Source of the DNA: an uncultured Verrucomicrobiae bacterium
Lineage (GTDB): Bacteria; Verrucomicrobiota; Verrucomicrobiia; Chthoniobacterales; JAFAMB01
Assembly: GCA_963762565.1 (NCBI GenBank)
Contig: CAVXLD010000011.1
Location: 96,001 to 160,000, forward strand
DNA: 64,000 nt
Reading direction: 5' to 3'
Part shown: positions 2,272 through 60,696 of the stretch, piece by piece
Layout: every line of letters starts with the position of its first letter
Numbering within the stretch: the stretch's first letter is position 1
Position numbers and translations under genes: made by a program
The notes under the pieces: model-generated
Databases searched by the model: none
What the model saw: only the letters and a program-made list of their open reading frames with translations
Told to the model about the DNA's origin: nothing

Positions 2272-3228
2272 ATGTCTGTGCGCGCACAACCCAAGGCTAC
2301 CTCGCTACCTCAGCCCTCTGACTCTCGGCCTCGTCGTTCGTCTTCCTTTTTCCGCGCTCTTCGTTTCAGAGAATCTTATGCGGCTTGGATCTTTATCGCT
2401 CCGGCGGTAATCGGCTTCTTCACTTTCTATCTAATGCCGGCTTTCAGAGCGCTCTACATTAGCTCGACCGATTGGAACCTGCTGCGCGCTCCAAAATTCA
2501 TCGGCGCAGCCAACTTCTCGAAACTCTGGAATGACTCCGCCTTTTGGGAATCGATGAAGGTCACGCTGCTCTACGTGATCTACAATATCCCGATCCAAAC
2601 CGTCATCGGTCTGCTGTTAGCAGCGCTGCTCGCCCGCTTGGGGCGATCGGTAGTGCTTCGTTCAATGATCCTGGCTCCCTACCTGATCGCGAACGTTATC
2701 GCCGCGATCATCTGGTTTTGGATGCTCGATCCTCTACTGGGCTTTGGGAATGCTGTATTGCACTGGATCGGGATCGGCCGGGTCGCGTTTTTCAGCGACC
2801 AGCATCTGGCGTTGCCGACCGTCGCCATGGTCAACATTTGGCGACACATGGGATTAACGGCATTGCTGTTCTACACCGGGATGCAGGCCATCCCGAGGGA
2901 TATCTATGAAGCCGCCAAAATAGAAGGAGCGGGGCCCTGGAGAAACTTTTTTGGCATCACCTTGCCCTTGATTCGGCCAACCATGGTGTTCGTTCTGGTC
3001 ACCAGTATCATCGGGTCATTTCAAGTCTTTGATACGATCGCTGTAACCACCCTGGGCGGGCCGAACTACGCTACTCGAACCATCGTCTGGTACATCTACG
3101 AAAACGGCTTCGTTAACTTCCGGATGGGATACGCCTCTGCGCTATCATGCGCTCTCTTCGTGTGTCTTGCCATCGTCACATTAGTGCAAATGCGGATCCT
3201 TCGTTCCGGCCAATCAGAACTCGGATGA
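2272..3228 (+). CDS. Carbohydrate ABC transporter permease (MalF/UgpA type)
   Basis: EAA loop YEAAKIEGAGPWRNFFGITLPLIRP; TM segments. Confidence 0.93.
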   Translation: MSVRAQPKATSLPQPSDSRPRRSSSFFRALRFRESYAAWIFIAPAVIGFFTFYLMPAFRALYISSTDWNLLRAPKFIGAANFSKLWNDSAFWESMKVTLLYVIYNIPIQTVIGLLLAALLARLGRSVVLRSMILAPYLIANVIAAIIWFWMLDPLLGFGNAVLHWIGIGRVAFFSDQHLALPTVAMVNIWRHMGLTALLFYTGMQAIPRDIYEAAKIEGAGPWRNFFGITLPLIRPTMVFVLVTSIIGSFQVFDTIAVTTLGGPNYATRTIVWYIYENGFVNFRMGYASALSCALFVCLAIVTLVQMRILRSGQSELG

Positions 3229-3349
3229 ATACAAAACAAAAGCTGAACCGCGAATGGACACGAATGGACGCGAAGGTGGTCACTGACCAGGGAGGGATCG
3301 CGTCCCCGCGATCCGCCGTTCGCGAAGTTTCAACGCCGATTGCCATCCA

Positions 3350-4315
3350 ATGGCTAAGCTAGACCCAAGCGCTACGAACGGCTTCGAGGCGCGCGAGGAC
3401 GCGCGCCCTCCTGGGTTTGAGGCGCCGACGCGTGTCCATTCGGGGTTCAAATTTTCTGTCTGGGTCGGGTGGGGGATATTGGTCGTGTTTGCCATTGTCT
3501 CGCTTGGCCCAATGTGGATCGCGGTCAAGACCGCACTAAGCGATAGCAGCACGCTCTTCACCGGCGCGAGCTCCCTGCTGCCTCAACAGCCCACGCTTTT
3601 TAATTTCGAGCGTGTCATTGGCCTGGTGAATCCCAACGATCCGCGTCTCCAACAAACCAGCTTCGGCAAGGTTGACTTCTACCGGGCGCTGATGAATAGC
3701 GCTGCTTTTACTCTATTAGCCGTGGTCCCCCAAATCGCTTTCAGCGCTATGGCGGCTTTTGCCTTCGCGCGCCTTCGATTTTTTGGACGCAGACTAATCT
3801 TCTTCCTTTTTTTGGCTGCCACCATGATTCCTAGCGTGGTCCTCTTCATTCCCAATTTCATTCTGATCAAAGACCTCGGTTGGTTGAACACCTATCAAGG
3901 CATGGCGGCGCCGTACGCTTTGATGACGCCATTCGCGGTGTTTTTCTTGCGTCAGATGTTTCTATCTACGCCAAGAGAACTTGAAGAATCCGCCCTCATC
4001 GACGGCGCTTGCTATTTCACCATTTTCTTTCGGGTGGTACTCCCGGTGCATCGGTCGGCACTTGCTACCTTGACGATTCTGGCGGCACTGAATGCCTGGA
4101 ACGACTTCTTCTGGCCGTTCCTGGTCGGACGAGATCGCTCAATTCAAGTGATGGCGGTAGCCATTAACTCTTTCCGCGCGCAGCAAGCCGGCGGCGTGCC
4201 GGATTGGAGCGGTCTCATGGCCTGCACCGTTCTCGGTATCGTCCCGGTCGCCATCCTGCTTGTTCTCTTCGGACGCAAAGTAGTCGAATCCTTACAATAC
4301 ACCGGCTTCCGATAG
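3350..4315 (+). CDS. Carbohydrate ABC transporter permease (MalG type); 5' end interrupted by a repeat element
   Basis: EESALIDGA EAA motif, WNDFFWP; probable ancestral start ATG 3225 (see findings). Confidence 0.9.
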   Translation: MAKLDPSATNGFEAREDARPPGFEAPTRVHSGFKFSVWVGWGILVVFAIVSLGPMWIAVKTALSDSSTLFTGASSLLPQQPTLFNFERVIGLVNPNDPRLQQTSFGKVDFYRALMNSAAFTLLAVVPQIAFSAMAAFAFARLRFFGRRLIFFLFLAATMIPSVVLFIPNFILIKDLGWLNTYQGMAAPYALMTPFAVFFLRQMFLSTPRELEESALIDGACYFTIFFRVVLPVHRSALATLTILAALNAWNDFFWPFLVGRDRSIQVMAVAINSFRAQQAGGVPDWSGLMACTVLGIVPVAILLVLFGRKVVESLQYTGFR

Positions 4316-4499: not shown

Positions 4500-5810
4500 A
4501 TGACCTCCCTGACTAAAGTACTGCTTGCGGCCAGCTTCGTGGCAGGGATTCCGGCACAGGGCGCAACGGAAATTAATTATTGGTTATGGGATAGTAACCA
4601 GCAACCCTCCTACCAAGCGTGTGCAGACGCGTTCGAGAAGGAAAATCCCGACATTAAAGTCAAAATCACCCAAACCGGGTGGTTTGATTACTGGACGTCA
4701 CTAAGTACAGCTTTTGTTTCCGGAACGGCACCGGACGTTTTCTGGGATCATCTGTCCCGCTATCCGGAGTTTATTGATAACGGCTTGCTTGTGGATCTCT
4801 CTCCGCTGATCGCTCGCGATCACGTACCGACAGATATCTACGTCGGCGGGTTAGTAAAAGTGTGGGGTAGGGACGGAAAGCAATACGGCCTACCGAAAGA
4901 CTGGGATACGATCGGGATCGTTTACAACGCGGACTTGCTCAAGAAGGCGGGCGTCGATCCTAAATCGTTGTGGGACCTGGATTGGAACCCAAAAGATGGC
5001 GGCTCTTTCGGCCAGCTTCTGGCCAAACTGACCGTTGATGAGGCCGGCAAGAACGGTTTGGATCCGGGCTTCACTCCGAAAGCCGTCAAGCAATACGGTC
5101 TGCTATTGAATGGGTTGTCAGACGGTCTCGGACACGAGGAATGGGCGAACTTCGCTGCTTCTGTGGGCTGGAATTATTGTGACGCTCCCTGGGCCACTCA
5201 TTTTTATTATGACGATCCTAAATTAGTAGCCACGATCCAATGGTTCGCCGAGATGAGTCTGAAAAAGGGGTTCATCGTGCCGGCAAAAGACGCTCGGCAA
5301 GCCCAAGCTACAGGCCTCTTTGCAGCCCAGAAAGGTGCTCTTGCCCTGACCGGATCATGGTTAGTTCATTGGTTCACGGAGAACTGTAAGTTTCCCATCG
5401 GGTTCGCTCCGTTGCCTAAAGGCCCGGTAGGCCGACGATCGGTAATCAATGGTCTCGCTGATTCCATTTGGGTTGGTAGTAAACACCAGGAAGAGGCTTG
5501 GAAATGGGTCAAGTTTCTTGCTTCTCCGGAAGCCCAAAAAATTGTGGGCAGCTATGGGATTGTCTTCCCGGCAATACCCGAAGCCGCGGAGATTTCTGAG
5601 AAAAAGATGGCTTCTAAGGGAGTCGACGTTTCGGCTTTTATGGAAGAAGGGAAAGCGCCAGGAGGGACTTTCTTTCTGCCGATCTCGGAGCACAGCAGCG
5701 ATGTAGTCCGGATCTTACGAGCAAATTTCGATTCTATCTTTCTAAACGGAACAGACCCGGCCACCGGCCTGGCCGCCGCGAACAAAGAGATCAACGCGCT
5801 GTTTCAATAA
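4500..5810 (+). CDS. Sugar ABC transporter substrate-binding protein
   Basis: Signal peptide; SBP_bac_1-like motifs (GTAPDVF, YGLPKDWD, EAWKWVKFL). Confidence 0.92.
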   Translation: MTSLTKVLLAASFVAGIPAQGATEINYWLWDSNQQPSYQACADAFEKENPDIKVKITQTGWFDYWTSLSTAFVSGTAPDVFWDHLSRYPEFIDNGLLVDLSPLIARDHVPTDIYVGGLVKVWGRDGKQYGLPKDWDTIGIVYNADLLKKAGVDPKSLWDLDWNPKDGGSFGQLLAKLTVDEAGKNGLDPGFTPKAVKQYGLLLNGLSDGLGHEEWANFAASVGWNYCDAPWATHFYYDDPKLVATIQWFAEMSLKKGFIVPAKDARQAQATGLFAAQKGALALTGSWLVHWFTENCKFPIGFAPLPKGPVGRRSVINGLADSIWVGSKHQEEAWKWVKFLASPEAQKIVGSYGIVFPAIPEAAEISEKKMASKGVDVSAFMEEGKAPGGTFFLPISEHSSDVVRILRANFDSIFLNGTDPATGLAAANKEINALFQ

Positions 5811-7362: not shown

Positions 7363-8685
7363 ATGACCCAAAGCACATCAAAACGAAAAATAGCTTTTAT
7401 TGGCGCCGGGAGCACTGTCTTCGCGAAGAATTTACTTGTCGATATTTTGTCGTTCCCTGAATTGGCCGATTCCAAGGTCTGTCTCTTCGATATTGACGCA
7501 GAACGGCTCCGGACATCCGAAATAGTTGCTCGGCGAATCGCTCAGCAATTAAAGGTAGCTCCAGAGATCGAGATAACCACCGATCGCGGACACGCGTTTG
7601 ATGGGGCTACCTATGCCATCAACATGATCCAGGTCGGTGGCTATCGTCCTTGCACGGTCACCGATTTTGAGATTCCAAAAAAGTATAGTCTACGTCAGAC
7701 GATTGCAGACACCCTGGGGATTGGTGGGATAATGCGTGCATTGCGGACGGTGCCTGTCCTGATTGCCATGGGCCACGAAATGGAGCGTCGTTGTCCGGAC
7801 GTTATCCATCTCAATTATGTCAATCCGATGGCGATGAATTGTTGGGCCTTGGCTCGGGCGACTAAGATCAAGACGGTCGGGCTTTGCCATAGTGTGCAAC
7901 ATACCGCTGAAGAGCTAGCTACGGACATTGGCGTCCCTGTTTCCGAGATCAATTATGTCGTCGCCGGGATCAATCACCTTGCTTTCTACCTGAAATTCGA
8001 ACGAAACGGAGAAGATCTATATCCGTTGATTCGGCGCGTAATAGAGGAAGGTGGGGTCCCGGCAGATAACCGGGTCCGGTACGATATGTTCCAGCGCTTA
8101 GACTATTTCGTTACGGAATCCAGCGAACACTTCTCTGAATATGTCCCTTGGTACATCAAGAAAGGTAGAGAAGATCTGATTGAACGGTACAACATTCCTT
8201 TGGACGAGTATCCGCGCCGGTGCGAACGGCAAATCGCAGGTTGGCAACAATTGAGAGACAGCTTGGAACAAACGGATTCGCCTATGGCGCTTGAACGCAG
8301 CGTCGAGTATGGATCAGGTATTATCCATAGCGTTGAGACCGGCCAACCAAGGGTAATCTATGGAAACGTTGAAAACCGCAACCTGATCACGAACCTGCCC
8401 AATGGCTGTTGCGTGGAAGTGCCGTGCCTGGTTGATAAAAACGGTATTCAGCCAGTGCAGATCGGCGCCATCCCTCCGCATCTGGCTGCTCTCATGCAAA
8501 CCAACATCAATGTTCAATCCTTGACTGTAGAAGCAATACTAACCGGCAAACGCGACTATATTTATCACGCGGCGATGTTAGATCCTCACACCGGGGCCGA
8601 ACTAGACTTAGATCAGATTTGGAGCCTGGTTGATGATTTGCTGGCCGCGCATAAAGATTGGCTACCCAAGGAGTTCGCGGGCTAA
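7363..8685 (+). CDS. melA: GH4 alpha-galactosidase/alpha-glucosidase
   Basis: KIAFIGAGS Rossmann start, QTIADTLGIGG, NYVNPM, GLCHSVQ, GINH, TESSEH. Confidence 0.88.
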   Translation: MTQSTSKRKIAFIGAGSTVFAKNLLVDILSFPELADSKVCLFDIDAERLRTSEIVARRIAQQLKVAPEIEITTDRGHAFDGATYAINMIQVGGYRPCTVTDFEIPKKYSLRQTIADTLGIGGIMRALRTVPVLIAMGHEMERRCPDVIHLNYVNPMAMNCWALARATKIKTVGLCHSVQHTAEELATDIGVPVSEINYVVAGINHLAFYLKFERNGEDLYPLIRRVIEEGGVPADNRVRYDMFQRLDYFVTESSEHFSEYVPWYIKKGREDLIERYNIPLDEYPRRCERQIAGWQQLRDSLEQTDSPMALERSVEYGSGIIHSVETGQPRVIYGNVENRNLITNLPNGCCVEVPCLVDKNGIQPVQIGAIPPHLAALMQTNINVQSLTVEAILTGKRDYIYHAAMLDPHTGAELDLDQIWSLVDDLLAAHKDWLPKEFAG

Positions 8686-8811
8686 CCAAGAGCCGCGATC
8701 GCCACTCCGTCTACTCAAGTCCACTTTTGTCCAGTGTCTCGCTCGACTGCCCACACCGCCCGCACAACCACCAAACGCCAAACGCCAACCGCCAAACGTG
8801 AACCCCCAACC

Positions 8812-9891
8812 GTGAACCGTGAACCGCGAACTGCGGACCCAGGAGGGCGAACTGCAAACCGCTTAACCAGCCAAGATATCGCTCGAGCTGCTGGAGTGTC
8901 TCGGACCACGGTTTCATTGGTGCTGAACGGTAAAGAAGACACGGGTATTAGCGCCCGGACTCAGGCTAGGGTCTTGGAGACCGCTGCCAGCTTCGGTTAT
9001 GTGCCGAATTCGGCGGCGCGCATGTTAGTGAGTGGCCGGAGCCGGACGCTGGGGTTAATCCTTGCCCATGGAGACCTGATGAGCTTCGACGCTTTTGCGC
9101 CTCCGCTAATGTTCGGGATTAGTCGCGTTTGTAATGCCAGAGGGTACAAACTGTTAATCGAGGCAGTTGAAGGAGAACGCCGGAGAAACGGTTATTTGGA
9201 TTTGGTAAAAAGCAAAAGCATTGATGCACTTATCGTATTGAATTCGAGCGCCGAGGACGAGGGCCTGGCGCGGTTGATTGATTCACAATTTCCGGTGATC
9301 CTCTTCGGTTCGATTGGTCATCCCAAAGAGAATTCGGTCCGGTCCGGGACGGACCGAGCGGCTGAATTGGTTACCCGGCACCTCTTGAAACTGGGTCACC
9401 GCCGAGTGGCACACATCACCTATGCTCCAAAACGGTACACGGGCCCGATGGATCGATTCCACGCCTTTCGGCGAGCTTTGGACAAGGCAGGGGCGCGATT
9501 CGATGAGAAACTGCTGGCCTACGGAGACTTCACCGCCGAGAGCGGATATCGGGCCATGTGGGAAATCCTCAGACGCGACAGGCGGTTCACGGCGCTTTTT
9601 GCCGGCAACGACACCATAGCGGTCGGTGCGATGGCTGCCCTAAGAGAAGCAGGGCTATCGGTTCCCCGCGATGTGGCGGTAGTTGGTTTTGACGATCTTC
9701 CGATTGCTGCTTACTCCCAACCAACTCTGACTACCGTCAACACCGAGCCAATCGTTCAGGGAGAATATGCGGCGTTAGCCGCCTTTGAGTTACTCGATGG
9801 TCGTCGAGTCGGCACCAGAAAATGTAAACTCTCTTTAAACCTAATCCTCAGAGAGTCCTGCGGCGCGAAACTCGCCAAGCGTGAGAAGTGA
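8812..9891 (+). CDS. LacI family transcriptional regulator
   Basis: HTH TSQDIARAAGVSRTTVSLVLN, YVPNSAAR, VVGFDD; start uncertain (GTG 8812 within a heptamer repeat, or 8734). Confidence 0.92.
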   Translation: MNREPRTADPGGRTANRLTSQDIARAAGVSRTTVSLVLNGKEDTGISARTQARVLETAASFGYVPNSAARMLVSGRSRTLGLILAHGDLMSFDAFAPPLMFGISRVCNARGYKLLIEAVEGERRRNGYLDLVKSKSIDALIVLNSSAEDEGLARLIDSQFPVILFGSIGHPKENSVRSGTDRAAELVTRHLLKLGHRRVAHITYAPKRYTGPMDRFHAFRRALDKAGARFDEKLLAYGDFTAESGYRAMWEILRRDRRFTALFAGNDTIAVGAMAALREAGLSVPRDVAVVGFDDLPIAAYSQPTLTTVNTEPIVQGEYAALAAFELLDGRRVGTRKCKLSLNLILRESCGAKLAKREK

Positions 9892-9913: not shown

Positions 9914-10381
9914 CTAGGGTGTTGGCTCATCCAAATCACCAATGAACACATCGTCGGTTAGCAATGGTTCTTCGTTTACTATTCCTCGATAGTCTGTGTC
10001 GGAGGAGTACTTACAAAAGTCCGCGGCGCGATCGATCATTCGGGCAAGCATTGACGTTATTGAAGACCAATCATTGTCCATTCTTTCGAATCGGTCTAAA
10101 GCGAGATAGCCCATATCAAGGGCATCATCGAGCCACGATTGCGTCTCCGTGGCTTCCCCCAACGCCTCGTCTATCTTGCTAATAAAGGCCGCGCGGTAAC
10201 GGCGTCGCGCCCATCCCTCAGCGATGAGCGCCTTCGTCGCCCGGGCAGAGCGACGAATCTGATCCGTTAGCTCATGCTTCTCCTCGCGGGGAAAAACTCT
10301 TGTTACCTCAAAAATCTCGGAAACCGCTTTTCGAGCGAGCTGATAAACTCTCAAATGACGAAACGATTTCGCAACGCCCAT
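9914..10381 (-). CDS. Four-helix-bundle protein (23S rRNA IVS protein/TIGR02436-like)
   Basis: SFRHLRVYQ...FPREEKHELTDQIRRSA...IAEGWARR...EALGEATETQSWL; flanked by inverted heptamer arrays. Confidence 0.88.
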   Translation of the reverse strand: MGVAKSFRHLRVYQLARKAVSEIFEVTRVFPREEKHELTDQIRRSARATKALIAEGWARRRYRAAFISKIDEALGEATETQSWLDDALDMGYLALDRFERMDNDWSSITSMLARMIDRAADFCKYSSDTDYRGIVNEEPLLTDDVFIGDLDEPTP

Positions 10382-10433
10382 ACCCCAACCACCTCTCACT
10401 TCTCACCAATCACCTCTCACTTCTCACGGCTAA

Positions 10434-15049: not shown

Positions 15050-15232
15050 CGGTAGGGCGAGGGCCTGACCCGGGAGGGCGCGCTGCCTGTCCGCCATAGC
15101 TTTAGCGACGGAGGATCCCCGCGCGCCACGAAGACGTTCAAGACCTAGAGACGTAATTTAGCCCCACGGTTTCCGAACGTGTGAAGCTCCGGTCATAACG
15201 GATCGCGGGGACGAGATCCCTCCCTACGTTGC

Positions 15233-16603: not shown

Positions 16604-16981
16604 ACGTGGTGTTTTGATGGGGTAACTAAGCCCAACATCGCCTATAACCACGCACCGCGCTTTTCGGAATATGTTACAACATTGCTACTTGACGTGGATC
16701 ATCGGGGGCTTCGTTCTCGTCGTCGTCGTTCTTCTAATGAACATAGGCCCATCGCCGGGAGGGATCGCTGCCTGTCCGACATAGCCTTCTCTTCCTAGTT
16801 CCTTTTCTCCCAAATGAGGCGACGTCGGATCCTCGCGATCCTTCGTTCTCGAAGCCCAGTGAAAGGCCCAATCCAGCGTTGGAGTATGTCCGAAATTATA
16901 GAGCCGTTCGCGGCGCGCGAGGACGCGCGCCCTCCCACGCCGCGTTCGACCGATGTAACGCTTCCCAGCGTTATCCACCGA

Positions 16982-28959: not shown

Positions 28960-31900
28960 CTAATCACCCGAAGAATCCCCGCCGCCATACCCGAGGACTT
29001 CAACGATGATTACCGATTCAGGTTGTTGCTCGGCCTGATTCGCCTGTTGTTTGGCGACTTCGTTAGCGGCATTCGTGTTGGCCCCGGCGGCGTTACTAGC
29101 CGCAGTCACTGCCGCTACGTTCGGCGATACTACCGTCGGGATACCGGTGGTCTTGCCACTGACTGAAATATTAGCAGCGTTAACGATGACGCGGGCCGCC
29201 AGGTTTGCATTGCCCGAAGCGCGAATCCCTGCTTCACCGGCATTAATGGTTCCTTCCGGTGCAATCAGGTTCACATTACCGGCGGGGATGTCCGGGATGG
29301 GATCCAGGGTGCCGATACCGGCGCCGGAACTGGGCGAGGTCGGAGATAAGATAATATCGTTGTAATCGTCATAAACGATCCCGGGCGGCGCAAAGATGAC
29401 GGTGCCTTTGGCGCCAATACCCGCATTGATGTCGCCAGCGCCGGACCAGATCACGATATTGCCGCCATAGGTCGTAAGAATGCGGCTTTCCCCAAGCAGC
29501 ACGCTGCCTTCGGAATACATGTTAATATCGCCCGAGCCTTGGGTCAGGATACCCGCGTGCGCCCCCGGCGTAACCCCGGTAACTCCAACGATGGTTTGAC
29601 CACCCGGCACCAACGTCGTAATCCCGCCTCCGAAATCGGTCAAAATACTGCTATCGCCTGCTTGGCCGCTGAACATGGTCAGGCTGCCGTTATAAGTAAT
29701 TTTCTGCCCGTTTTTTGCTCCGGTGGTTGGGAATAGGGTTGCAATTGCTTCCTGACCTTGCAGATAGCTTTGATAAAAGGGGCTGGTCGGATCGTTATAT
29801 TCCAAACCGGACTGATTCAATTCACTGAAATAGACCTGCAACAGAAAGATGCTCTGTTGCTCGATCGGCAACGACTCAAAATAGGCCAGCGCTCCAGTCG
29901 AGGATCCGGTATAGCTATAGTTTTGTTGGAGCCAGGTTAACAACTGATGCTGATAGGTCTGAACCACTTTCCCGGGCTGGTCGACTAACAACTGATTAGG
30001 ATTCGCCAGGTTAGCCGGATTCAGATAGAAATTGGCGAATCCCTCCCAATTCGGTCCTTCGGAACCGACTCCGGCAAACACAATGATTCCGGCGCCGCCG
30101 TCCGGATTCTTGATCTTAGGAGCGCCGATTAGACCGATCGACACGATGTTACCCTGGTCACCCTGATAGACGTTACCACCCGCGCTGACCTCCAAATTAC
30201 CGGGTCCGGCAATATCAACGTTAGCGAATAAAATCTCGTTCCCGGCCGAAACCACCGACACATCGGTTTTGGAATTATTCAGGATGAAGCTAGGACTGCT
30301 ACTGGATTGACCAAAATTGACAATGTCATCTCCGGCCCGGATGTCCACGGCTTTCGCACCGATATATTCCGGCACGGTTTGGCCACCGAAACTGGTAGTC
30401 GTGAGTTGTCCGAACTGCAGTCCAACAATGTCACCGGTCACCGCATAGATTAGAGCCGGCGCGTTATCGTTTGCGTGCAGGGTTCCAGAAGCAGAATCCA
30501 GTTCAAACGCAAATAGAGTCGGGTTGTCATGAGGAGGCGTGGTGGCGGGAATCGTGTTCCAGGCTAACGCCATAAGAGAGGTCAGCGCAGTCCCAGGGGT
30601 GTGCCCCATGGTGGAGAGTAAGTAGAAAGCGGGATCGAACGGACTAGGCAGAGAACCGGCGGCCGTGCTCGCCCCGGATATTTCAAAGATCTGCCCGCTG
30701 ACGCTTCCTGAGCCCGCCTCGGCATAGATCGATTGCTCGGCCAGAATTTCTAGTTGCCCGTTAGGTGAGGGGGCTAGTTCAAGCGGGCTGCTGAGACCGG
30801 CGTAAACGCTCCCACTCGTTGCGAAAAGGCGCAGGGTTGCAGGGAACAACCCCTGATTGCCACTCTCGGAAGAGTTTACGGCATTCGGTACAATGTTTCC
30901 GCCGGCCGACAGCCCTTCGATCGAAGTTGCTGCTGTCCAGAGCGAGAAGAAAGAATTGGCAAGTCCCTGATTTGATGGATCGGCTGTTTCGGTCCCCTCT
31001 GTCGTGTTCACAACACTGAAGGGATTAATGATACCGGCATCAGTAGCGTTACCGAGAACCAAATCACCGCGAACTTGAATTTGGATGGTGGCGTCGCCCG
31101 GAATCAATTGAGGCCCGCCAAAGGCGTAGCTGTAGACGGCCGCGGTGGAGACGCCGGTCGGCCGCGAATCTCCGGTACCGGATTGCCCGTAAACCAGGTC
31201 GATTCCCCCGATCGAACCCGCCTGAATGTTCAGATTTCCGCGGAGATTCACGAAAGTGCCGCCGGAGAAACCGGGATCGATGGCATTACCGTAGCCTACC
31301 GCAACCGGGTTCAACGTCTCGCCGATTTCCACCGTAACATTTCCGCCGCCAGTTTCCACCAGGTCGCCTCCTCCTGAGCCGTTGATTGAAACCACTCGAC
31401 CGGTGGCGCCAATTGCGATGACGAGACTGCCGCTGGTTTCGGTGTTGGATGAAAAGGCCATGACGCCGGCGTTACCGCCCGCCGAAACCATTACATTGCC
31501 TCCGCCGAGGGCACCGATGCCGGTAAACCCGGCAACGAACGGAGCACCGGTGTCGTTAGGGGCGTACGTTCCGAAATTAATCCACCAAGCGGCGTGTTGG
31601 CCGATAAGACTACCGCCCTGGGTCCACAACCAATTGCTCACGTTGTACGTTGCGGAGTAGATGCCGTTTAGCCCGGTCACGCTGAAGCCGGTGATATCTC
31701 CCTGCGCCAAAACGAGCACATTGCCGCCGCCAGCCGGATAATAGGCCTGATAGTCATTACTGGCGATGTACTCATAGACCGAGCTCGCATAGTTACTTCC
31801 TAGAATACTTCCTTGGTAATTACCGCGAGGCAAATCGAACGATCCGCCGTCCGCGGCCGTAATGGTCGGTGTCCGCGCTCCGGCCGTATAAATGCCATAC

Positions 31901-34900
31901 AACGAATCTTCAACGAAACTTCCTCCCGCCAGGAGATCAAGATAGCCGGTGCCCGTCCTGATCACGCTGAAAATCGGCGTATTGCTCGCCAGATCGTAAT
32001 GGGGATCATCGAGCACCAGATTCCCGGAGCCGTTCAGCGCGCTCTGTGCCTGTAAAACCCGAGTATCCGCCGCTCCCGTGTCCGCTCCAGCTATAAGCTG
32101 GATGGACCAGGAGAGGGGTACCTGACCATTCGGTCCGAGCGGCAACATTGGCTCAACGGCATAAACCTGTCCCTGGATGCCAGAGGTGCCGCTAGGTGGG
32201 CGTGTGGCCACCGATTGAACGCCCGTGGCGAACTTCGGCGTAGAGCCAACCGGAAACAGATCGCCCGCCGCCAGGGTTATGGAGGGTCCCGTCATAGTAA
32301 CCGGTCCGGAAAAGTCTGATAGAGGGGCGCCAGCCGGCCAGGTAACGGCGTTGATTGCGATCGAAACCGGCAATACTGAACCGCTGGCCAGTGTGGTCCC
32401 TGCGAGTAGCTGTGTGCCGGCGGGAACAGTTTGACCGGCATGAAACACTAGTCCGTCGGGCAGCGTGATCGTCGCGGTCGCGATAAACGGCGTGCTAACC
32501 GTTGCCTGCGCGCTTAGCGTGACCATCACCGGGATCACGACGTTCGGATTTAGTTTCGCCGGGTTGATCGAGATCGCGTAGCTTAACGATACTGGGTCGT
32601 TGGCAAATTTCGTCCCGTCGAACAGGGTAACACCAGTCTCGACCACGACATTAGAGAGAGTCGCTTTATTCGCAAAGAGCACCCAGCCATTCTCGTCCGG
32701 GTAGGTCATTCCATTGAGGTTCAACGGCGCGAAGCCATCGTTGATACTTCCATCGACATTTAAGTTACCACCAGCCCGCAGAATCAGGACCCCGGGTTCT
32801 CCTGAGCCATAGTAATTCAGGTTCAGTTGAGAGTTAGGATTGACGCTCGGGTATCGATATTCGGACAGATCGATGTCGCCCACTACGGTCAAGTTGCCGT
32901 TCGGGGTTGCGCTGACGATCTCGACGCCTGGCCGTAGATGGAAGGCTTGTGTGTAAGCGGTGAGCCCAGATAGCGCGGCCAGACTTCCGTTTGACAATGC
33001 AGTATTGATAAAAGTGGTACTGTCTTGACTAACCTGATCCAGGATTATCGCTCCATTGGGAGCACCGGTACCCGCGCTTTGTACGATGGTCCCGTTGGGA
33101 TCGGTCGGTGCGTAGGTCCAGAATGCGTTTAAGGCGATCGTTTGCGCACCCGTAATATTGACCTGTCCGTTTGCTACGATCCGGACATTCCCTGAAGTTA
33201 CGCCGGTCCGAGGTACGTTGAGCTCGAGATCGCCACGATCGATGCCATCGGGAGAACTCATATCGATAGTCGCCCCAGCATCCAACAGCAGGCTCCCCGT
33301 GCCATTATTGAGCGTGGTCACCGATGTATTACTGCCATCTTCAACCGTCAGCTCGATGACACCCCGGTTTTCCGCATCGATCGCCTGGCCGTAGCTATCC
33401 ACTTGCAACACCGTGTTATGGACATCCAGAACACCCGTCGAAGCCACTTCCAAGTTACCGCCCGCGGAGAGCCGGATCGTTCCTGGCGTAGCGCCGCTGG
33501 CATCGATGGTTCCGGCGACGATCAGGCTGCCGTTATCCACGGAGATATCGACGATATGGGCCATAATCGTAGTTCCTTTGGCGATCGTGATACTCCCTTG
33601 TTTGATGTCAAAAGAGCGCGAGTAAAAGAAGCCGCCCGTATCAAGTAACTGGTTCAGCATCGTGAAATCGCCTGCATTTTGTGCCCGGATATCAAAGGAA
33701 CCCGCGTTGAAATTGCCGGTACTGCTTCCTAAAAGGGTGCCCCCCAAGGTGACTTGCCCGGCGGAAGTACCGGTCGCGGTGATGGTCAAGCTACCGGCAT
33801 TATCGCCAATCGCGGAGACGTTGATAATTGAAGACGTATCCTGCGTGATATTTCCCGTTGTGCTTTCCAGTGAGACATCGCCGCCGAAGGTCGAGACCTT
33901 TTGATCGAACATTGCCACTGTCAGACCGGACACATCGATCTGGGAGCCTGCGTTCAAGGAAATATCACCGTTAGCAGTGAGCGTTACTTTGCCGGATGCA
34001 GCCAGGACCGAGGTTGAATCGGTAATGGTGTCTGCTGAAAGATCGATCTCGGCACCAAGGCTATCGGACATTACGGTCGCCGGTTGGGCGCCGGCTGGCG
34101 GCATTAACATCAATGCGCCGCCGGTCTTGTAACTCAGAACCGAGCCGGGCTCACCGGTCAGGAGAGGGGTTATCAGGTTCAAGTTGCCGTTGGTATAGGT
34201 CCCCGGGCCCGTCTCGGCAAGGTAAACGGAGAACGATCCTTTGCTGTTCGCGGTGATCTCCTGCGTGGCGGTCAGGTTAACCGTCGAGAACCCAAGCACT
34301 AGGCGGTCTAGCGAGGTTATATTCTGGCGTTCGTCTTGAGGCGCGTAGCCGAAAATGATCTCGTTAGCGACGATGTTGAGCGTACCGCTACCCGTACCTG
34401 GCCCACCGGCAATAACCGGTCCGGGTGGGGTGTTCGTGTAGACAATTGTGTTCGAGGTACCAGGAGCGAGCCCTAGCTGAGCCAGGCCGTTCCAGATGAG
34501 CGTACTTGTTGTGATCGTGACGCTATTAGTCCCTGTGCCGGCGCCATAGACGGCTGGCGAATCGAACACCAGTTCCTGCAGAGTCGATCGCCCGGTAGCA
34601 GGGTCGAGGGTGTTGATATTGACCGTTCCGTAGAAATTGATCGATTGCGATGCCGACAGAGTTAGCATCTGGAGAGCGGGCGCGCCGGATGCAGGGTCTC
34701 CTGCTAACAGCTGATCGAGCAAGCTCTGGTCAAGTAACAGACCAACAGGCAGGGTGCCATTCTGCTGGGCTGCCGCTAGAGATGCCGGTGTCCCGATATT
34801 AATATCGGTAGCCGCAAACCCGATGTACTTCGCCCCATAATTGGCTTCCTCTCCTAAATTCAACCCTGCGCTGGTAGCGAACGCGATGGTGCCATCCGAC

Positions 34901-37900
34901 AAAATGGACGCGCCGTTATCCACCGTGATCGGACCGGTTGCATTGCCCAGTCCCGGTTGGATATCAAGATAACCGTTCGATACAGCCAGTACGGCATAAA
35001 TCGCGTTTTGCGCAGCGTAACTGTTCGTAAAGAAGTAACCGCTGGATGAATCAAATGCCGGGTTACCCCTGCCTAGAGTGTCGATGATTGCTCCGGATTC
35101 GACCGTGATCCCATCTTTTCCCTGTGCTATCAGTGTGACGTCTGCACCCCGCAGAATGGCGCTGGTCCGAATGGCGACTTCTGCGGCGTTCGCTACAAAA
35201 TTAACCTCAAAACTGCCTTGGGTTGAGAGCGCGAGGTATCCGCCGATATAAACGTTGGGTGCGTCGATCGCATCGACAGCGGACGCGTTCAGGGAGATCC
35301 AACCTTTGGTAGGGATAGCACCGGCCCCGGTAATTTCGATGTTTTGCGAACCCGATCCCCCTGCACCACTAATAACTAACGTGCCCGAATATCCGGCCGG
35401 CGCCGGCTCAAAATCAGCCGTCCCGGCAAAGGTTAATTGAGACTCAGGTTCCGGCGATGGTGTCAGGTTGAGTGTGAGAGTCGAGGCATCGACCGGTAAC
35501 ACGGGGCGTGGCTGATTGAACTTTTGCGCCTGCGAGACGGCTACAGCACTATAAGTTTCCAGGTCATATTCGGAGTAGGTTTCGACCGCGGACGCCGGCG
35601 TGATGATCGCCTCGTTGGGAAGAGCATTTTGGAAGCTCGTGTTGGCGGCTCCTTCGTTGACATCGACTTCGAACGAACCGTTGTCCAACGATAACACTGG
35701 CGGCTGGTTTGTGTTTCCACGTCCTCCCAGTTCTACCCGGAAAGCTCCTGGGAGCAGGGCGTAATTTGCCGGCATCAGGATGTAGGTACCGGCCGGCAAG
35801 CCCGGGACACCGGCTGGGATCGTGATCTGTTGGCCGATACTCGGCATACTGCCGGTGTATCCGGTATTTGTATCAACCGTTGCCGGCGCATACGTTTGCA
35901 CCCCGGGGACGATGGCGTAGACCGCGTTACCGGACGCACTGAAAGTATAGCTGGGGTTTTGGTTGATGAGCGCGGTTGAAAGCACATCGAGTGAGCCGCC
36001 CCGACCGGAGATGAAGCCCTCGCCAAACAGCTTGCCGCCGCCGGAGAGATCGAGCAGTGCGCCGTGCGAAACGGACACGGAATAACCTTCGAGCGTGATT
36101 CCGCGCGTGGCTGCAAATGTTGCGTCGATCACATCCCCTGTGGTAAACGTTTGCCCATTGACGTTATAGATCACTCCGTCAGTGGTGCCGCCGTAAGGGA
36201 TTGTCAGCCCGTTTGCGCTCACCGAGGTGATGCTACCGGGAAGGAAATTCACGGCTTTTGTCGCTTGCGAGTTGCCGATGGTCGGATTGGTTCCAAAAAT
36301 AAGGGAGCCCAGCGGCGCACGGACAATTCCACCCTGATTGATCGTTTTCGCTTCGAAAGTCAGTTGGCCGAAAACCGATTGTGGAACGGCCGGATCGACA
36401 TTGCTGATCCGAGAAATTGAAATGGAAGTGCCCGGTGCGAACGGCTGAGCTGCTCCATTGAGAACCGGGATATCGCCGGCGATCACCTTAGCGTTACTCG
36501 CCCCGGAGACGGGATACAGTTGTGCCGCGGTAAATGTAAAGCTTCCAGGTGAAGTGACAGAAGCATCCGACAGAAACCGGATATCGCCTTGGCTGACAAA
36601 ATTAACGTCTTTGAACCCAGGATAATTGATCGTCTTTCCCAGATAGGCGGTATTAGGGCCGGGGGTCTCGAAATCACCGAATGCTGCCGAGCCCAAGTCG
36701 ATGAGATCTGCTTCGATGGTTAAATCCGCTCTTCCGTAGCTTTCCCCTTGAGGAGCGTTAGATGGATATAGAGCAGACAGTCCGGTGGTGAGATAGACGC
36801 CATAGCCATATCCGGGCTCCGGCTCCCCCTGATATTGTGCCGTCGGTGTGGTTAGCAAGACATAGGGAGCAGCAATGACGACTTGAGCGTGGCGGCTCGT
36901 GTCCGCCAAGGAGACGGCCGAAAGCTCAACGCTTTCTGGCGCGCTTAAGGTGACGTTGCCCTTAAACAGGATGGAATTCGCCGCAAATAAAGACAGATTC
37001 GCGAAACCGCCTTCGGTTACTGTGTTTGCACTGAGATATGCGTACCCAACTTTCAGATTTGAATTTTCCGTGCCCGGTTCAAGGGACGAAGGAAGAGCGC
37101 TTGGAACCGGGTCCTGCCCAATGACAATCGTCCTAGGTGTTCGCAGGTTATCGGGTACTAACGCGTTCGCGTCGTTATCATTGCCGGCAAAAGGTGGTAG
37201 AACCTGATAGATAGGACCCGCGAAGGTGATTGCTAGAGTTCCTCCGGCGCCTCCCGGACCGCCGGCAGCTGCTTCCAATTTGCCATCGATATAGATCCCA
37301 TCGTAGGAGCTCAGCGAGATCGATCCCCCGTTACTCGCGGCATAGACAGGGTCTCTCTGGACAATTGAGACAGATGTCCCTCCAAGGCTCTCAGTCGGAT
37401 TAGCACCGGCGTTCAGATCCAAGACCGCGCTAGCGCCCGATGCGTCCAGGATTGCGCCCGGCCGGATAATCACAAACGCGTCCGTCGAAGTGACCTCTGT
37501 GTAATCGCCGGGGGAGGCCGATTGAGTGCCGCCGGTGCTCCCCAGCACAATTGAACCCCCATTAGGAACCAGACCGTAGGGCCGCCCAAACCGATCCAGT
37601 GCGACGAACGCCTGTGCAGCGACATCCAACGTGCTGTCGCTCCCGATCCAGATCGATAAGCCATGCGGCTCGTAACTGATCGTTTTCCCGGTTCCGCCAA
37701 CCCCGCCTAAAGGCCGATAATTCACAATCTCGATTGAACCGCTCGGGGCTCGCAGTTTGCCGTCGACCGTGATCTGGCCCGCTCCCTCAATATCGATCGA
37801 TTGACCCGGATCAACGTAGATGGTTGACCCGGCGCCGATATTGATCGTGCCGCCCGCCCCTACATTAGAGGTGGCAACGAGGTTACCGTTAACTCCGGCT

Positions 37901-40900
37901 AGCAAACTCAAGCTCGCGCCCGGGCGCTGGGTTACCGTCGCCGTGTCCGGGTCGCCGACATACACCGGCATTAGCAGAGGATTTCCCATCGCGGTCGTGA
38001 TGCTCGCTCCTGTCGGTATTTTGTAGCTCGCGGCACTAAATTGATAAACCGGTTCCGTCACATTGATGTCTGCTCCCGGTGCTACCGTGAGAGACTCCAT
38101 CCCGTGGATTGTGTAACTCGAGAACCCCTGGCTGAAGAACGAGGTCGGCAACACGAGCTGGTCCGCCTTTGCTACAGTGATCCCATCGCCGATGACCACC
38201 GAGTAAGCTTGCAGGGCAAGGGCGCCACCCGCTTTGACGCCGTAAGACTCTATTGTGCCATCTAGAACGAGCGCTCCTCTCGATACTGCCTGCGCAACCG
38301 TGAGCAAGGTTCGCTTAGCGTGTTTCGACGTTACGCTAACGTTACCCACTTGATCCGCTTCAATCGAGATATTTCCCCCCGAACCATCGAGCGTTTTCCG
38401 GTTCGGCAAGATGGCGGCTCCGGAAGACGCATCGATCAGGCTTCCATTGGAAAGCGTTATCCCTTGATTTGAACTTAACGTTACATTGCCCCCGTTGATA
38501 TAGGCCTCGCCGGTGATATCGGTGGGGTCCAGGAACCCGTTGGTCCATAAACCCGCCGTATCGATCACAATATCCGGTCCAAGTGTAATTCCAGCGATCG
38601 CCCTCGCCGGTTTCGTGGATGGTACGTTTGCGGATTGGTTATAAGAAACCGCATCAATCGATACGCTGCCGTCGGGTGCGGTGATGGTGCCGTCGATAAC
38701 CACATTTGCCGCCGTCAACGAGATCTGGGCGCCGTTAGCAAACGCCAACGGATCGGCAATCGTCAAATAGCCCTTCGCGCCCCGCGGGATGTTATTCGCC
38801 GATGAGCTGGCGTCGTCCGGATGCGACGCGCCGCTCTTGGATTTCGGTACCGCCGCTTCAACATGGATTCTCAGTCCTCCGAGTTGAGCACTGTTAATCT
38901 GCGAAGCTGAAAACGTGTTGGTGTTGAATAGGTTGCTATTGATCGGGGATGTAGCCGTCAGATTCGCGGTCAGCGAGGAGTTGTTATCACCAAAGACAAC
39001 GTTGCTGGAATAAGGAAAGCCGTTGTTCACCTGACTCTCCGGGCCAAGGACGAGCGATCCATTAAGAGTAACCGTGCTCTCGGTCAGCAGAAAAGGATCG
39101 GTCACAGTCGATGGCCGGGCGCTGTCCTGTTGCGGCCCATCAACGGTCTGCGCATCGATGGTTCCCTCGAAGATCGAGGTCCTAGCATTGATCGTCAGAG
39201 TGCCTGCATCCCGGCCCTCGGTATAGCCGGGAACATAAATCTGGCTCGGCTGGGTGATAACGTTGGCGTACGTCTCGGTAACATTCCAGCGGGGGTGATT
39301 GACCACGAACCCGTTAAATACGCCAATATAGGTAAGCCCGGCCGGAGCGGTATTAACATTATAAATACGGCCATCGCTGGCGATGACATAGCTCTCCTTA
39401 AGATAGCCACCCTGGTACTGGATAGAACCGCCGGCGATATCAAAGACCGAACCTTTCTGTGCGACCACCTGGTTCGCTGAGAGGGTAATCGCGCCCCCGA
39501 TGGTGTCCCATTCATCAATGCTGTGCCCAACGTTATTCAGCTCGCCGCTAACTTCCAATAGCCCCCCGGGCGTGTAATAGCGGTTCTCGGTATTGTAGGG
39601 CGCGTTGTAACTCGAATTCGCCGGTACTTCCACCAGCTGCCGCAGATCCACGTACACGGTATTATTAAATAGCGATTGCGTATCCCGGTTGTCCGGAGCG
39701 TCTCGGAGCTCAAACCCTTGAATGTTGACCGCCAGGTTGTTGTCCGACATCGGCAGAGATACGTTCACTAAGCCCGATACGTCGAGCTTGGCGCCGTTCC
39801 CGACGAAGACCCGTTTCCCGGCATAGACGACGATTTGCCCCGCAGTCGCGCTGGTGAGTGAGCCGTTGGCGAAATCGACCATGCCGCCGGTTGTAATCTC
39901 GATCCGGGAAATACCGACAAGATCAGGAAGTAGAACTTGATCATTGAGCAGCGGTTTGGCGTTTGAGTAAGCGATGTCTTCCGTATAGGCTGCTGTCTGT
40001 TGCGGATCGAGCGCGGTGCTGGAATTAGGATCCGGAGCGATGTAGGTGATACTGCCGGGCGCCAAAGTCACGCTGCCGGTCACTTCCGAGGTGGAGGTTA
40101 ACAGATGAATGGTGCCGCGTTGATCGACCGAGCTGGTTGCGATGATAATACCGGATTGGGTCACCTGATGGCCGACCATGGTGATATCGCCGGTGGTCGC
40201 CTCGATCACCCCCGTGTTCAAAGTGGTTCCACCAGAAGTCACCTGCACCTCGGCCCCCAAAGTGGTCGAGGTCTCGTTCCCGGCGGAGGAACTCACTGAG
40301 CTGGTGCCGGGGATTATACTGTACCCCGGTAGCAAGGAGAATTCTTTGCCGGCGGCCAGGACAGTTTGTCCGTCTGCCGTGGTAATAGAACCGGCGTTCT
40401 CTACCGATCGGCCCAGGAGAATCACCGAGCCGCCTCGGTCCCCGGTTCTCAAAGGCGCATTTGTTACCAGTTGTGCGCCGAGGTCAACAATCACCGAGCC
40501 TAACCCACCGGTAAAGCTCGGGCTACCAAGAGAACTATTTGAGTTGACCGCAGTATAAATGCCGTCTGTGGTAAATTGCGAATCGGTGATCCTGGCTGCA
40601 GCAGCGAGCAACGTACCAACATTGATCTGGGAGGCGCCCCCGAAAATGATCCCGTTCTGGTTGATAAGATAAACCTGACCCTGTGCCTTAATCGAGCCCA
40701 GGATCTGGCTCGGTGTGCCACTAAGAATCCGATTTAACGCAACCCAAGTGTTAGCCACGGCGCCCCCGCCGCTCTGGTTGAAATCGACCGTCGTATTTTT
40801 GCCGACGTTAAAAGTTTGCCAGTTTAAGATCGCCTGTGACGCCGTCTGTTGAATCGTAACCGTGGTTTGGCCGTTCGACACCGATTGGGTCGGCTGATTT

Positions 40901-41271: not shown

Positions 41272-41509
41272 GGCGCAATGCTTGGTTCGCCCTGCGTCGA
41301 GTCTAGCTGGATGCATATCTATAAGCTTTGAATTGTATTATGCGGGATTTCGGAATGCGCCGCGCTTAAATGAGTTTCTCGCCGAGGTCTGCTCAGACGA
41401 ACTAATCCCGCTCCGGACCCGCCTAATTCGCGTCTATTCGCGTCCATTCGCAGTAAACTTTCCGACCTTTGTGCTGAATCCCGACCAATCACGAATCACC
41501 AATCACCTG

Positions 41510-44475: not shown

Positions 44476-44549
<74 letters not shown>

Positions 44550-44780: not shown

Positions 44781-44854
44781 CGGGCCGTAGCACAGCTTGG
44801 TAGTGCGCTTGAATGGGGTTCAAGAGGTCGTGGGTTCGAATCCCGCCGGCCCGA
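44781..44854 (+). tRNA. tRNA-Pro(GGG)
   Basis: CGGGCCG/CGGCCCG acceptor, CTTGA-ATGGGGT-TCAAG anticodon arm, GTTCGAATC; no encoded CCA. Confidence 0.95.
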
Positions 44855-55069: not shown

Positions 55070-55770
55070 TTTTTTACAGAAGGTAACGAAGCTAAGGAAG
55101 GATTATTCGTTCGCGGCTGCGCATGTGTCGGAAGGCGGTTCAATCCTTCGTGCCGTTCAACTCCTTTCGTAACGAATTCTGTATCATAGGTAGAAGGCGA
55201 GGTTGTCTTAGCGTCCACGGTCGCTCTAATAATCCGAGCATGCACCCAGACTTTCAAAAAGCGATGGATTTTACAAAGGTCATCATCAATTCTGCCATTG
55301 AAGTACATCGAGACAAAGGTCCTGGCTTGTTTGAATCAATTTATCAATGGTGCCTGGAGAAAGAATTGGAGCTGCGCTCCCTGTCGTTTGTCAGCCAGAA
55401 AGCGGTGACGATCCATTACAAGGGATTTACAAAAGACGAGCCGCTTCGTTTCGATATCCTCGTCGAAGATTCCCTGTTGGTTGAAGCGAAATCTGTCGCA
55501 AAAGTCCTACCGATTCATAAGGCGCAAACATTGAGCTACATGAAACTGCTCAATGTGCCGGTCGGGTTGCTGCTCAATTTCAACGAGATGAGGCTGGTAG
55601 ACGGCGTGCATCGCCTGATACTCCCAGGAGCAAATCGTTAGCGTACGAACCAGATAGAATAAGAAGAGAAAGTTTTAAGGAGATCCCTAAGGCGTAGCCC
55701 GTTCTCATTCGCCATGGGACTCAGAAAGCTCTAAAAATCCTTCGTTAGCTTCGTTCCCTTCTGTAAAAAA
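55070..55770. mobile_element. Putative element: GxxExxY gene between 35-bp terminal inverted repeats
   Basis: 55070-55104 vs 55736-55770, 33/35 identical in inverted orientation; mobility not shown. Confidence 0.6.
55240..55641 (+). CDS. GxxExxY protein (PD-(D/E)XK nuclease-like)
   Basis: VHRDKGPGLFESIYQWCL, FDILVE...VEAKSV, QTLSYMK, GLLLNF. Confidence 0.92.
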   Translation: MHPDFQKAMDFTKVIINSAIEVHRDKGPGLFESIYQWCLEKELELRSLSFVSQKAVTIHYKGFTKDEPLRFDILVEDSLLVEAKSVAKVLPIHKAQTLSYMKLLNVPVGLLLNFNEMRLVDGVHRLILPGANR

Positions 55771-59674: not shown

Positions 59675-60203
59675 CCGCTCCCATGGAGGGATCGCGTCCT
59701 CGCGATCAGTTGTTCTCGAAGCCCAGGACGTGATCTGATCGCGGACGAGAATATCTTTTTAGATAGTGCCACGTCCTCCGGCGCGGGGGACGCGCGCCCT
59801 CCCCGATCGGGGCGCTGCCTTCCCACATTCTAGAACAAAGTAAATCTCGCAGCTCCCGCATCTCTCAAGACACCCGAGAGTGCAGCCAGACGATACAGCG
59901 ACCAGGTTCGGGTATACTGCATGGTTTTTTTGCAAAATCCTGGATAACTCGTCTGCTGTGGCTGAAGGAGAGAACCGATCGCCGAACGTGCTCTCTGACC
60001 TATGTCGCTCTTTTCGACAGAGTAGTGACAGCGACGAAACATTCGAAGAGGCCGAGTTACTTGCCTGGTACAACAGCTGCTAAATATGAATGTCAAAGCA
60101 GTAATATTGGAATACCGGCAGTTCCCGGGGCAGAGACTGTCAGTGAGCGACCTTGAGCGGCACGTTGTAGGATCAGTAACCGGGCGCTGTCACTTAGGAG
60201 TTT

Positions 60204-60446: not shown

Positions 60447-60696
60447 TCTGGCGGTTTGGGGAGACTAACCAGGCTATGTAATACGCGTCTCCATTTTGAA
60501 GGCAAATCGAGGCGCTCCTTTACCAACGAGCGTGAACGCCGACAACGGACAAGAAAGGGGGAGGGCGCGCGTCCCCGCGCGCCGCGAAGACGTTCAGAGT
60601 CCCCAGGCGTGATCTCATTTCTTGATCGACAAGCACTCGCGGCTCTGCACGAACGAAGGATCGCGGGGACGCGATCCCTCCCAGCGCCGGGGCCTC

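Follow-up and report, generated by a model that had tools for sequence, protein, structure and literature searches.

A nested palindromic repeat at the ATGA junction of two sugar transporter genes in Chthoniobacterales, with a probable replacement start codon inside the insert

In phage T4 gene 60, ribosomes bypass a 50-nt gap between matched take-off and landing codons, with a stop just after take-off and a conserved hairpin at the take-off site. Hairpins of the repetitive extragenic palindromic (REP) type, located between malE and malF of Escherichia coli, act on mRNA decay and can set the relative expression of the cistrons. Here, we describe a hairpin element in a 64-kb stretch of contig CAVXLD010000011.1 (64,000 nucleotides, hereafter the window) from a soil Verrucomicrobium of the Chthoniobacterales (Verrucomicrobiota), where it separates the first codons of a MalG-type ATP-binding cassette (ABC) permease gene from the remainder of that gene. 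For elements within genes, PMC3733652 describes REPs inside coding sequences, including intragenic REPs of Opitutus terrae (Verrucomicrobia), and recognizes a REP unit by a tetranucleotide, GTAG or CGTC, that is conserved at one of its ends. PMC10969869 describes Rickettsia palindromic elements (RPE) that insert in frame within genes, as well as transposable elements of the miniature inverted-repeat type (MITEs) that can change the expression of neighbouring genes. The present case is of a known kind, in which a REP or MITE element lies within the 5' end of a gene; it differs in the out-of-frame position with capture of a start codon, the nesting, the location exactly on an ATGA coupling junction, and the retention across six species. 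Based on the sequence comparisons described below, we consider it probable that an old palindromic-repeat insertion is present, that the gene was kept through an ATG inside the insert, and that the insert is not removed. If so, the locus is a clean natural example of a gene that absorbed a palindromic repeat at the most vulnerable position of an operon, the ATGA overlap coupling two transporter subunits, maintained across at least six species.

The junction was compared in 22 related loci, from the stop codon of the first permease to an anchor in the first transmembrane segment (TM1) of the second (VFAIV). Seventeen loci (L006–L021 and L050) have a compact junction with a stop-to-anchor distance of 56–71 nt, in which the second gene either overlaps the stop as ATGA (11/17) or starts 0–5 nt past it (6/17). 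The N-termini of these compact orthologues resemble MKNPSSS...RRWLGY, with about 19–23 codons ahead of the anchor as counted from the printed N-termini. At the same site, the window and L001–L005 have 256–393 nt between stop and anchor. The sequence GGATGA is kept in all six of these loci and in 11 of the 17 compact ones. A tree of both permeases places the six insert-bearing loci in one clade (100/99) nested among compact loci; L050 was excluded from trees. Alignments of distant outgroups (Inquilinus and others) mostly begin at query residues 31–43, so that most of them are without the extension, the exception being L036, which aligned from residue 2 at 50% identity. Among the best 120 homologue protein clusters, 104 have 26–30 residues ahead of SLGP, and seven (P0001–P0007) have extended N-termini, six of them with arm-coded peptides. 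Judged from these junctions, the additional DNA is a true insertion that predates the divergence of the six species. Because the compact orthologues and most of the outgroups are without the extension, ATG 3225, which overlaps the stop of the first permease (TGA 3226–3228), is assigned as the ancestral coupled start of the second permease. Both the overlap and the original role of this ATG had been proposed in an earlier note on this DNA, made from the letters alone. The rule given there, that orthologues sharing the MAKLDP extension of the present protein refute an insertion, proved too strict: the closest relatives share MAKLD because the insertion predates their divergence, whereas distant orthologues do not.

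The 276-codon core of the second permease is intact in all six insert-bearing loci, and in 21 of the 22 related loci overall. Over this core, the ratio of nonsynonymous to synonymous substitution rates (dN/dS) between the window and L001–L005 amounts to 0.015–0.034, at a proportion of synonymous differences (pS) of 0.64–0.74 where synonymous sites are saturated. Since a disrupted gene would not keep such low dN/dS after this degree of divergence, the sequences indicate that the insertion is old and tolerated and that the gene is alive and under strong purifying selection. As a separate observation, the orthologous second permease of L050 (from 4134) hits a stop after 50 core codons, possibly reflecting a pseudogene, a frameshift or an assembly error.

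In all six loci, a single in-frame ATG lies within the insert, followed by an open frame that extends across the right arm up to the TM1 anchor. In the window this codon is ATG 3350; the only later in-frame starts are TTG 3479 and GTG 3485, both truncating TM1. The surrounding start region, CATCCAATGGCTAAGCTAGACC, is identical at 24/24 positions in L001 and 22/22 in L002, while synonymous sites differ by 64–70%, and it was found at no other place in the 64-kb window or the 22 Chthoniobacterales loci (205 kb). A MAKLD start is common to the window, L001, L002, P0001 and P0002. L003/L004 have another interior and start with MSPKP/MSSKP, and L005 represents a third type, MASNT. A Shine–Dalgarno (SD)-like tetramer occurs in only 2 of 24 long open reading frames (ORFs), and because of this rarity the absence of an SD-like site before position 3350 is normal for the genome. 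From these features we infer that ATG 3350 is the start actually used. Hence, of the options raised in the earlier note, a tolerated insertion with initiation at ATG 3350 gains support from the compact orthologues, the six-species clade, the purifying selection and the in-insert ATG in all six loci.

Initiation at this codon would add a tail of ~33 residues (MAKLDP...HSGFK), coded by the right REP unit and the right arm of the insert. The ratio of nonsynonymous to synonymous differences (pN/pS) in the tail is 0.81–1.18 for the window versus L001 or L002, and 0.49 for L003 versus L004 with the TM1 edge included. This fast, neutral-like evolution suggests that the tail is probably free of amino-acid constraint. 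By analogy with MalG-type permeases, the tail is probably cytoplasmic, ahead of TM1. The closest solved relative of the second permease is SugB (8ja7_B, E = 8.4e-24), in which residue 62 aligns to query residue 110; the window protein is thus 48 residues longer before that point. N-terminal extensions that gene callers assign to the second permease should accordingly be read with caution, as they are element-coded.

The features of the junction are collected in Table 1. The frame of ATG 3225 reads six codons (MNTKQK) before it enters the hairpin. The insert, 3244–3449 (206 nt), is bounded by outer arms 3244–3262/3431–3449, complementary at 18/19 positions, which at lower stringency reach 3238–3271/3422–3455 (34 nt, 79%). 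An inner inverted pair, 3286–3310/3392–3416 (25 nt, 80%), involves two REP-like units that share one plan: a GGAGGG head is followed by a 6-bp stem that closes around a TCCYC loop. The earlier description of a 206-bp element with such arms and a REP doublet inside is therefore accurate. RNA folding of 3225–3470 gave –107.5 kcal/mol compared to –89.65 ± 4.86 for shuffles (z = –3.67), with 0/200 shuffles as good, and in the minimum free energy fold the spacer between the REP units (3317–3387) is placed near the hairpin apex. In summary, the insert is a decamer-arm hairpin with a nested REP doublet in its loop.

Table 1. Coordinates of the two permease genes and of the parts of the insert in the window
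Feature	Position	Strand	Details
First (MalF-type) ABC permease	2272..3228	+	318-aa ORF; Pfam BPD_transp_1 E = 3.2e-13
Relic upstream ORF from the ancestral start, 45 codons	3225..3362	+	crosses left arm and left REP unit; TAG 3360–3362, 13-nt overlap with the new start
Left arm of outer hairpin	3244..3275	+	GAACCGCGAAT, then tandem decamers CGAATGGACA/CGAATGGACG
Left REP-like unit	3286..3316	+	GGAGGG-ATCGCG-TCCCC-GCGATCC
Spacer of REP doublet, 71 nt	3317..3387	+	contains ATG 3350 inside CATCCAATGGCTAAGCTAGACC
Second (MalG-type) ABC permease, present form	3350..4315	+	321-aa ORF; Pfam BPD_transp_1 E = 1.9e-15
Right REP-like unit, inverted	3388..3418	-	GGAGGG-CGCGCG-TCCTC-GCGCGCC (minus strand); permease frame reads AREDARPP
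Right arm of outer hairpin	3422..3449	+	shortened, single decamer; translates to TRVHSGF

The insert sizes and interiors vary among the six species. Outer arm pairs were found in L003 (42 nt, 95%), L004 (36 nt, 89%) and L005 (34 nt, 79%), and no pair of at least 16 nt in L002. The interior of the window insert has no relation to that of L003/L004, to that of L005 or to that of a further copy of the arm family at 41222–41452 of the window, and these are likewise unrelated to one another. Because arm pairs enclose unrelated interiors, and those of L006 only a 10-nt loop, a hairpin in which nested inserts accumulate is the better description of the unit. No direct repeat indicative of a target-site duplication was seen around the arms at any of the six junctions, as judged by reading. 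Compared across loci by eye only, the arms diverge independently, with no convincing compensatory changes. The protein P0008 (303 aa) reads MNKKQKLNRESNSPFRYSV, which matches the old start of the window plus the residues that the outer ends of the two arms would give once joined. It is placed in the insert clade, the interior of which is unresolved in the protein tree, and may represent either a deletion derivative or a pre-expansion hairpin.

Both components of the insert belong to dispersed families. The inner 25-mer has four occurrences in the window at ≤3 mismatches versus 0.00 expected, and ten REP-like units were found at seven sites, three of which are inverted doublets with unrelated spacers. 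Other copies of the left-type unit lie at 15199–15225(-), 59685–59707(+) and 60658–60682(-), those of the right-type unit at 1885, 16912, 59788, 60560 and 62897, and copies are present also in L002 and L008. The further doublets, with different spacers, are located at 59685–59802 and 60560–60682. The arm motif is enriched as well (11 matches versus 2.89 expected; 0/100 shuffles). Besides window 41222–41452, its family is represented at L003:2956–2985, as an arm alone, and at L006:2901–2963, as a simple hairpin with the 10-nt loop.

The insert resembles REP sequences and their composite forms, bacterial interspersed mosaic elements (BIME) and REPIN, in consisting of short GC-rich imperfect palindromes, within the 20–40 bp size range of that class, with a common GGAGGG head at seven sites in 64 kb. 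Inverted doublets are likewise frequent, with variable spacers and between co-directional genes, and further similarities are that the units can be located in the translated 5' end of an ORF and persist at orthologous sites. Conversely, only one of the ten units is preceded by GTAG, CGTC occurs solely inside the stem-loop, and none of the 70 ORFs of at least 110 aa in the window, the 64 kb of genome covered, matches a Y1 transposase family. Moreover, the doublet is here nested in a second, unrelated hairpin and provides the start codon of the gene. As for the RPE described in PMC10969869 and PMC3733652, palindromic repeats are found in coding genes that still function, with element-coded residues including N-termini. 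RPE are in frame and read through, whereas the present insert, with its 206 nt not a multiple of three, shifts the frame, the incoming reading ends at the stop 3360–3362, and a new start inside the element rescued the gene. Terminal inverted arms, a body of ~150–250 bp and a long RNA hairpin are shared with bacterial MITEs (Correia, ERIC and others) as presented in PMC10969869, but the six junctions show no target-site duplication and the interiors are not shared between copies. Since neither the tetranucleotide tag of REPs nor the target-site duplication and shared interior of MITEs are found, the insert is called REP-like and hairpin-nested, and is assigned to neither family. The maltose-type operon of E. 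coli offers a parallel in that REP-type hairpins occur in a transporter operon of the same kind; in malE–malF they lie between genes, whereas the present element interrupts the second permease within what was originally its coding start.

Taken together, the following history is proposed. The second permease at first began at the ATG of the ATGA stop/start overlap. A palindromic repeat then inserted a few codons into this gene, in an ancestor that the window organism shares with no fewer than five other species, as a hairpin with decamer-repeat arms whose interior was remodelled later, in the window with a REP doublet. The insertion cut the old start away from the gene, and the ATG within the insert (3350 in the window), being in the correct frame, would have left the gene functional; the right REP unit and right arm would thus be translated as the N-terminal tail before TM1. 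No removal at the DNA, RNA or ribosome level would be involved. Ribosomes may load directly on the partly unpaired apex of the hairpin, given that SD sites are rarely used in this genome, and in four of the six species the ORF from the old start could serve as a relay that ends right at the new start.

Several observations weigh against this account. ATG 3350 lies inside a very stable hairpin (–107.5 kcal/mol), and the predicted unpaired probability near the start is 0.46–0.62 in the window and 0.21–0.53 in the other loci. The insert is also conserved, by these alignments, well above the neutral level, which mere tolerance does not explain. The left arm of the window is 82–89% identical to those of L003–L005, compared to 61–71% for the adjacent coding flank and ~26–36% for synonymous sites of the core, and for L003 versus L004 the divergence is 9.3% of positions in the insert and 23% at synonymous sites. 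Concerted evolution within the repeat families is a conceivable cause for the arms and REP units, but does not explain the site-specific spacer. Furthermore, with boundaries drawn equivalently, the flanks are in register in 6/6 loci (left 21, 9, 9, 9, 9 and 15 nt; right 37 nt), as a removal model would also predict, although common descent and constraint on a short upstream ORF (uORF) explain the register equally well. Lastly, the uninserted protein P0009 falls inside the insert clade of the protein-only tree, on a long branch (0.096). Its N-terminus is of the uninserted L014 type and its core groups with the insert clade, and it may reflect insert loss, a recombinant or a chimeric contig.

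The relic uORF from ATG 3225, for which a stop at 3362 had been noted earlier and is confirmed (TAG 3360–3362), gives rise to the alternative that an essential relay connects the two genes. Ribosomes on the uORF would melt the hairpin in its left half and, after termination on top of the new start, reinitiate, resulting in 1:1 coupling of the subunits. Translation would restart at the old ATGA, continue through the left arm and open a hairpin of about –100 kcal/mol before termination on the new start codon. The proposal draws on the position of the uORF end, which lies 13 nt inside the new start in the window, 4 nt before the new ATG in L003 and L004 (46 codons), and 15 nt before it in L005 (53 codons). 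The chance of an end within ±20 nt of the new start is 0.075–0.12 per locus (5000 shuffles), a range that was chosen post hoc, after the data had been seen. In addition, left flanks occur in lengths of 21, 15 and 9 nt, with steps that are multiples of three, and in L003 the 5-nt indel that destroyed the old ATG (MI*) made a replacement, ATG 5835, in the same register. According to PMC10666635, gene overlaps are enriched for subunits of heteromeric complexes and a spacing of ~20 nt almost abolishes termination–reinitiation coupling; a relay ORF would keep the subunits coupled because of this limit.

Still, the uORFs of L001 and L002 (2/6) comprise 20 codons and leave about 166 nt to the new ATG, and even so the gene is intact and selected in both. 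The relay can therefore not be essential. The lineages are moreover few and partly dependent, as the start region is shared in part among L003, L004 and L005, and the uORF peptide is not conserved (pN/pS of 1.52 for L003 versus L004). A search for the 45-aa peptide inside longer proteins provided 91 candidates, none at E ≤ 0.01, a weak test given the short query. The coincidence of uORF end and new start in four of six loci is thus suggestive only of a relay of translational coupling, and an essential relay seems doubtful to us. Equally tentative is the related proposal that the orphaned first codons were kept as a relay ORF of 45–53 codons, rebuilding subunit coupling across an insertion of 120–180 nt. 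If a relay were true, the conservation of the insert above synonymous sites would reflect selection on the relay and not mere tolerance, and cells would have a simple way to regain translational coupling after an insertion.

We find it very improbable that the hairpin is removed or skipped, whether by excision of the DNA, by processing and ligation of the RNA or by ribosomal bypass, to give a protein that begins MNTKQKQFSV... from the coupled ATG. Excision of 3244–3449 leaves an open frame of 294 codons from ATG 3225, as the earlier note had pointed out, albeit with 18 codons before the TM1 anchor, compared to about 19–23 in the compact orthologues, so that the removed form is near-normal in length and differs slightly from the ancestral one. 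Frame restoration depends on the boundary drawn, since deletion of 206 or 218 nt restores the frame and deletion of 202 or 204 nt does not, which bears out the caution expressed in the note about the weight of this argument. In these repeat-rich Verrucomicrobia, frame restoration upon removal is no evidence of programmed removal. P0008 looks as if only the outer arm ends were left, and between-arm deletions may occur on the evolutionary scale.

The locus shares with phage T4 gene 60 a structured, untranslated gap that interrupts the coding sequence and that, if skipped, would leave the frame restored. Conversely, no matched pair of take-off and landing codons is common to the six loci, as judged by reading, and the frame of ATG 3225 is free of stops for 45 codons, leaving nothing to halt a ribosome at the take-off site. 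The hairpin is lost in L002, where the gene is intact without arm pairing. The gap of at least 206 nt is variable, with junctions of 256–393 nt across loci, and the offsets between coupled ATG and permease frame differ among the six loci (2, 1, 0, 0, 1 and 0), that of L003 being 0 when counted from the old ATG but 1 when counted from the replacement ATG 5835. Inside the insert, every locus provides an in-frame ATG with an open frame. A search of 3000–3700 against Rfam gave no match at E ≤ 1, arguing against a known intron or ribozyme; at gathering score, the whole window has matches to two tRNAs alone (44476–44549, 44781–44854) and none at the insert. The suggestion that the stem is removed or skipped hence found no support. 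A programmed –1 frameshift, by which ribosomes in the 3225 frame would enter that of the permease, was considered separately and rejected: no slippery heptamer was seen in 3287–3362, and the offsets vary among loci.

The converse polarity, with an ancestral long junction that was shortened to the compact form by deletion, is scarcely credible: nothing in its support was found, the insert-bearing loci are a derived clade nested among compact loci, distant relatives are compact too, and the extra DNA consists of dispersed repeat families. That the second permease is dead or dying, disrupted by an insert that parts it from its ancestral start and translational coupling, is given practically no credence, being refuted as far as sequence can tell by the intact core in six species and its dN/dS of 0.015–0.034 at saturated synonymous divergence.

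Some further observations concern the repeats themselves. At 41216–41458 of the window, a second decamer-arm pair surrounds an unrelated interior of ~170 nt. This element sits at the 5' end of a 4118-aa ORF (28960–41316, minus strand) of the two-partner-secretion (TPS) type, with a TPS domain of the filamentous-haemagglutinin type. The first two ATGs of the ORF lie inside the arm element, and its hydrophobic N-terminus, ICYLLFAICYS, is coded by short tandem repeats beside the arm; here, too, a start may have been captured within an element of the arm family. Repeats also nest inside repeats at the orthologous insert of L001 and L002, where the left REP unit (L001:5880–5968 and the L002 equivalent) is split by a further insertion of ~60–90 nt. 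The splitting piece is another repeat family, found twice in the window beside REP units (1978–2065 and 16757–16841; 81% identity). L001 has an additional arm pair of 41 nt with 93% complementarity, of the GCCTACGGCGCGACAGGC type. The REP doublets at 59685–59802 and 60560–60682 flank a stretch of ~760 bp between an AraC-family gene and an oxidoreductase gene, in which the sole ORF of at least 110 aa (115 aa, 60456–60800) overlaps the downstream edge and has no Pfam match.

The junction sits in a CUT1-type sugar ABC operon that, besides the two permeases, codes for two binding proteins, a GH4 glycosidase and a regulator of the LacI type. The second permease is classified as MalG-type (CUT1) by its BPD_transp_1 domain together with the partner permease and the two solute-binding proteins (SBP_bac_1) in the operon. 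A scan of 3100–3600 returned zero promoter-like and zero terminator-like sites; it covered only the sigma-70-type consensus, so that an internal promoter is still possible. Downstream of the permeases, two tandem paralogous solute-binding protein genes (4500–5810 and 5818/5881–7191) are followed by the GH4 glycosidase gene (7363–8685) and the LacI-type regulator gene (8734–9891). Elsewhere in the window, an ORF of the 23S rRNA intervening-sequence protein family is located at 9917–10399 (minus strand) and one of the PD-(D/E)XK_3 nuclease family at 55123–55638 (plus strand), both families being frequently tied to mobile or defence contexts.

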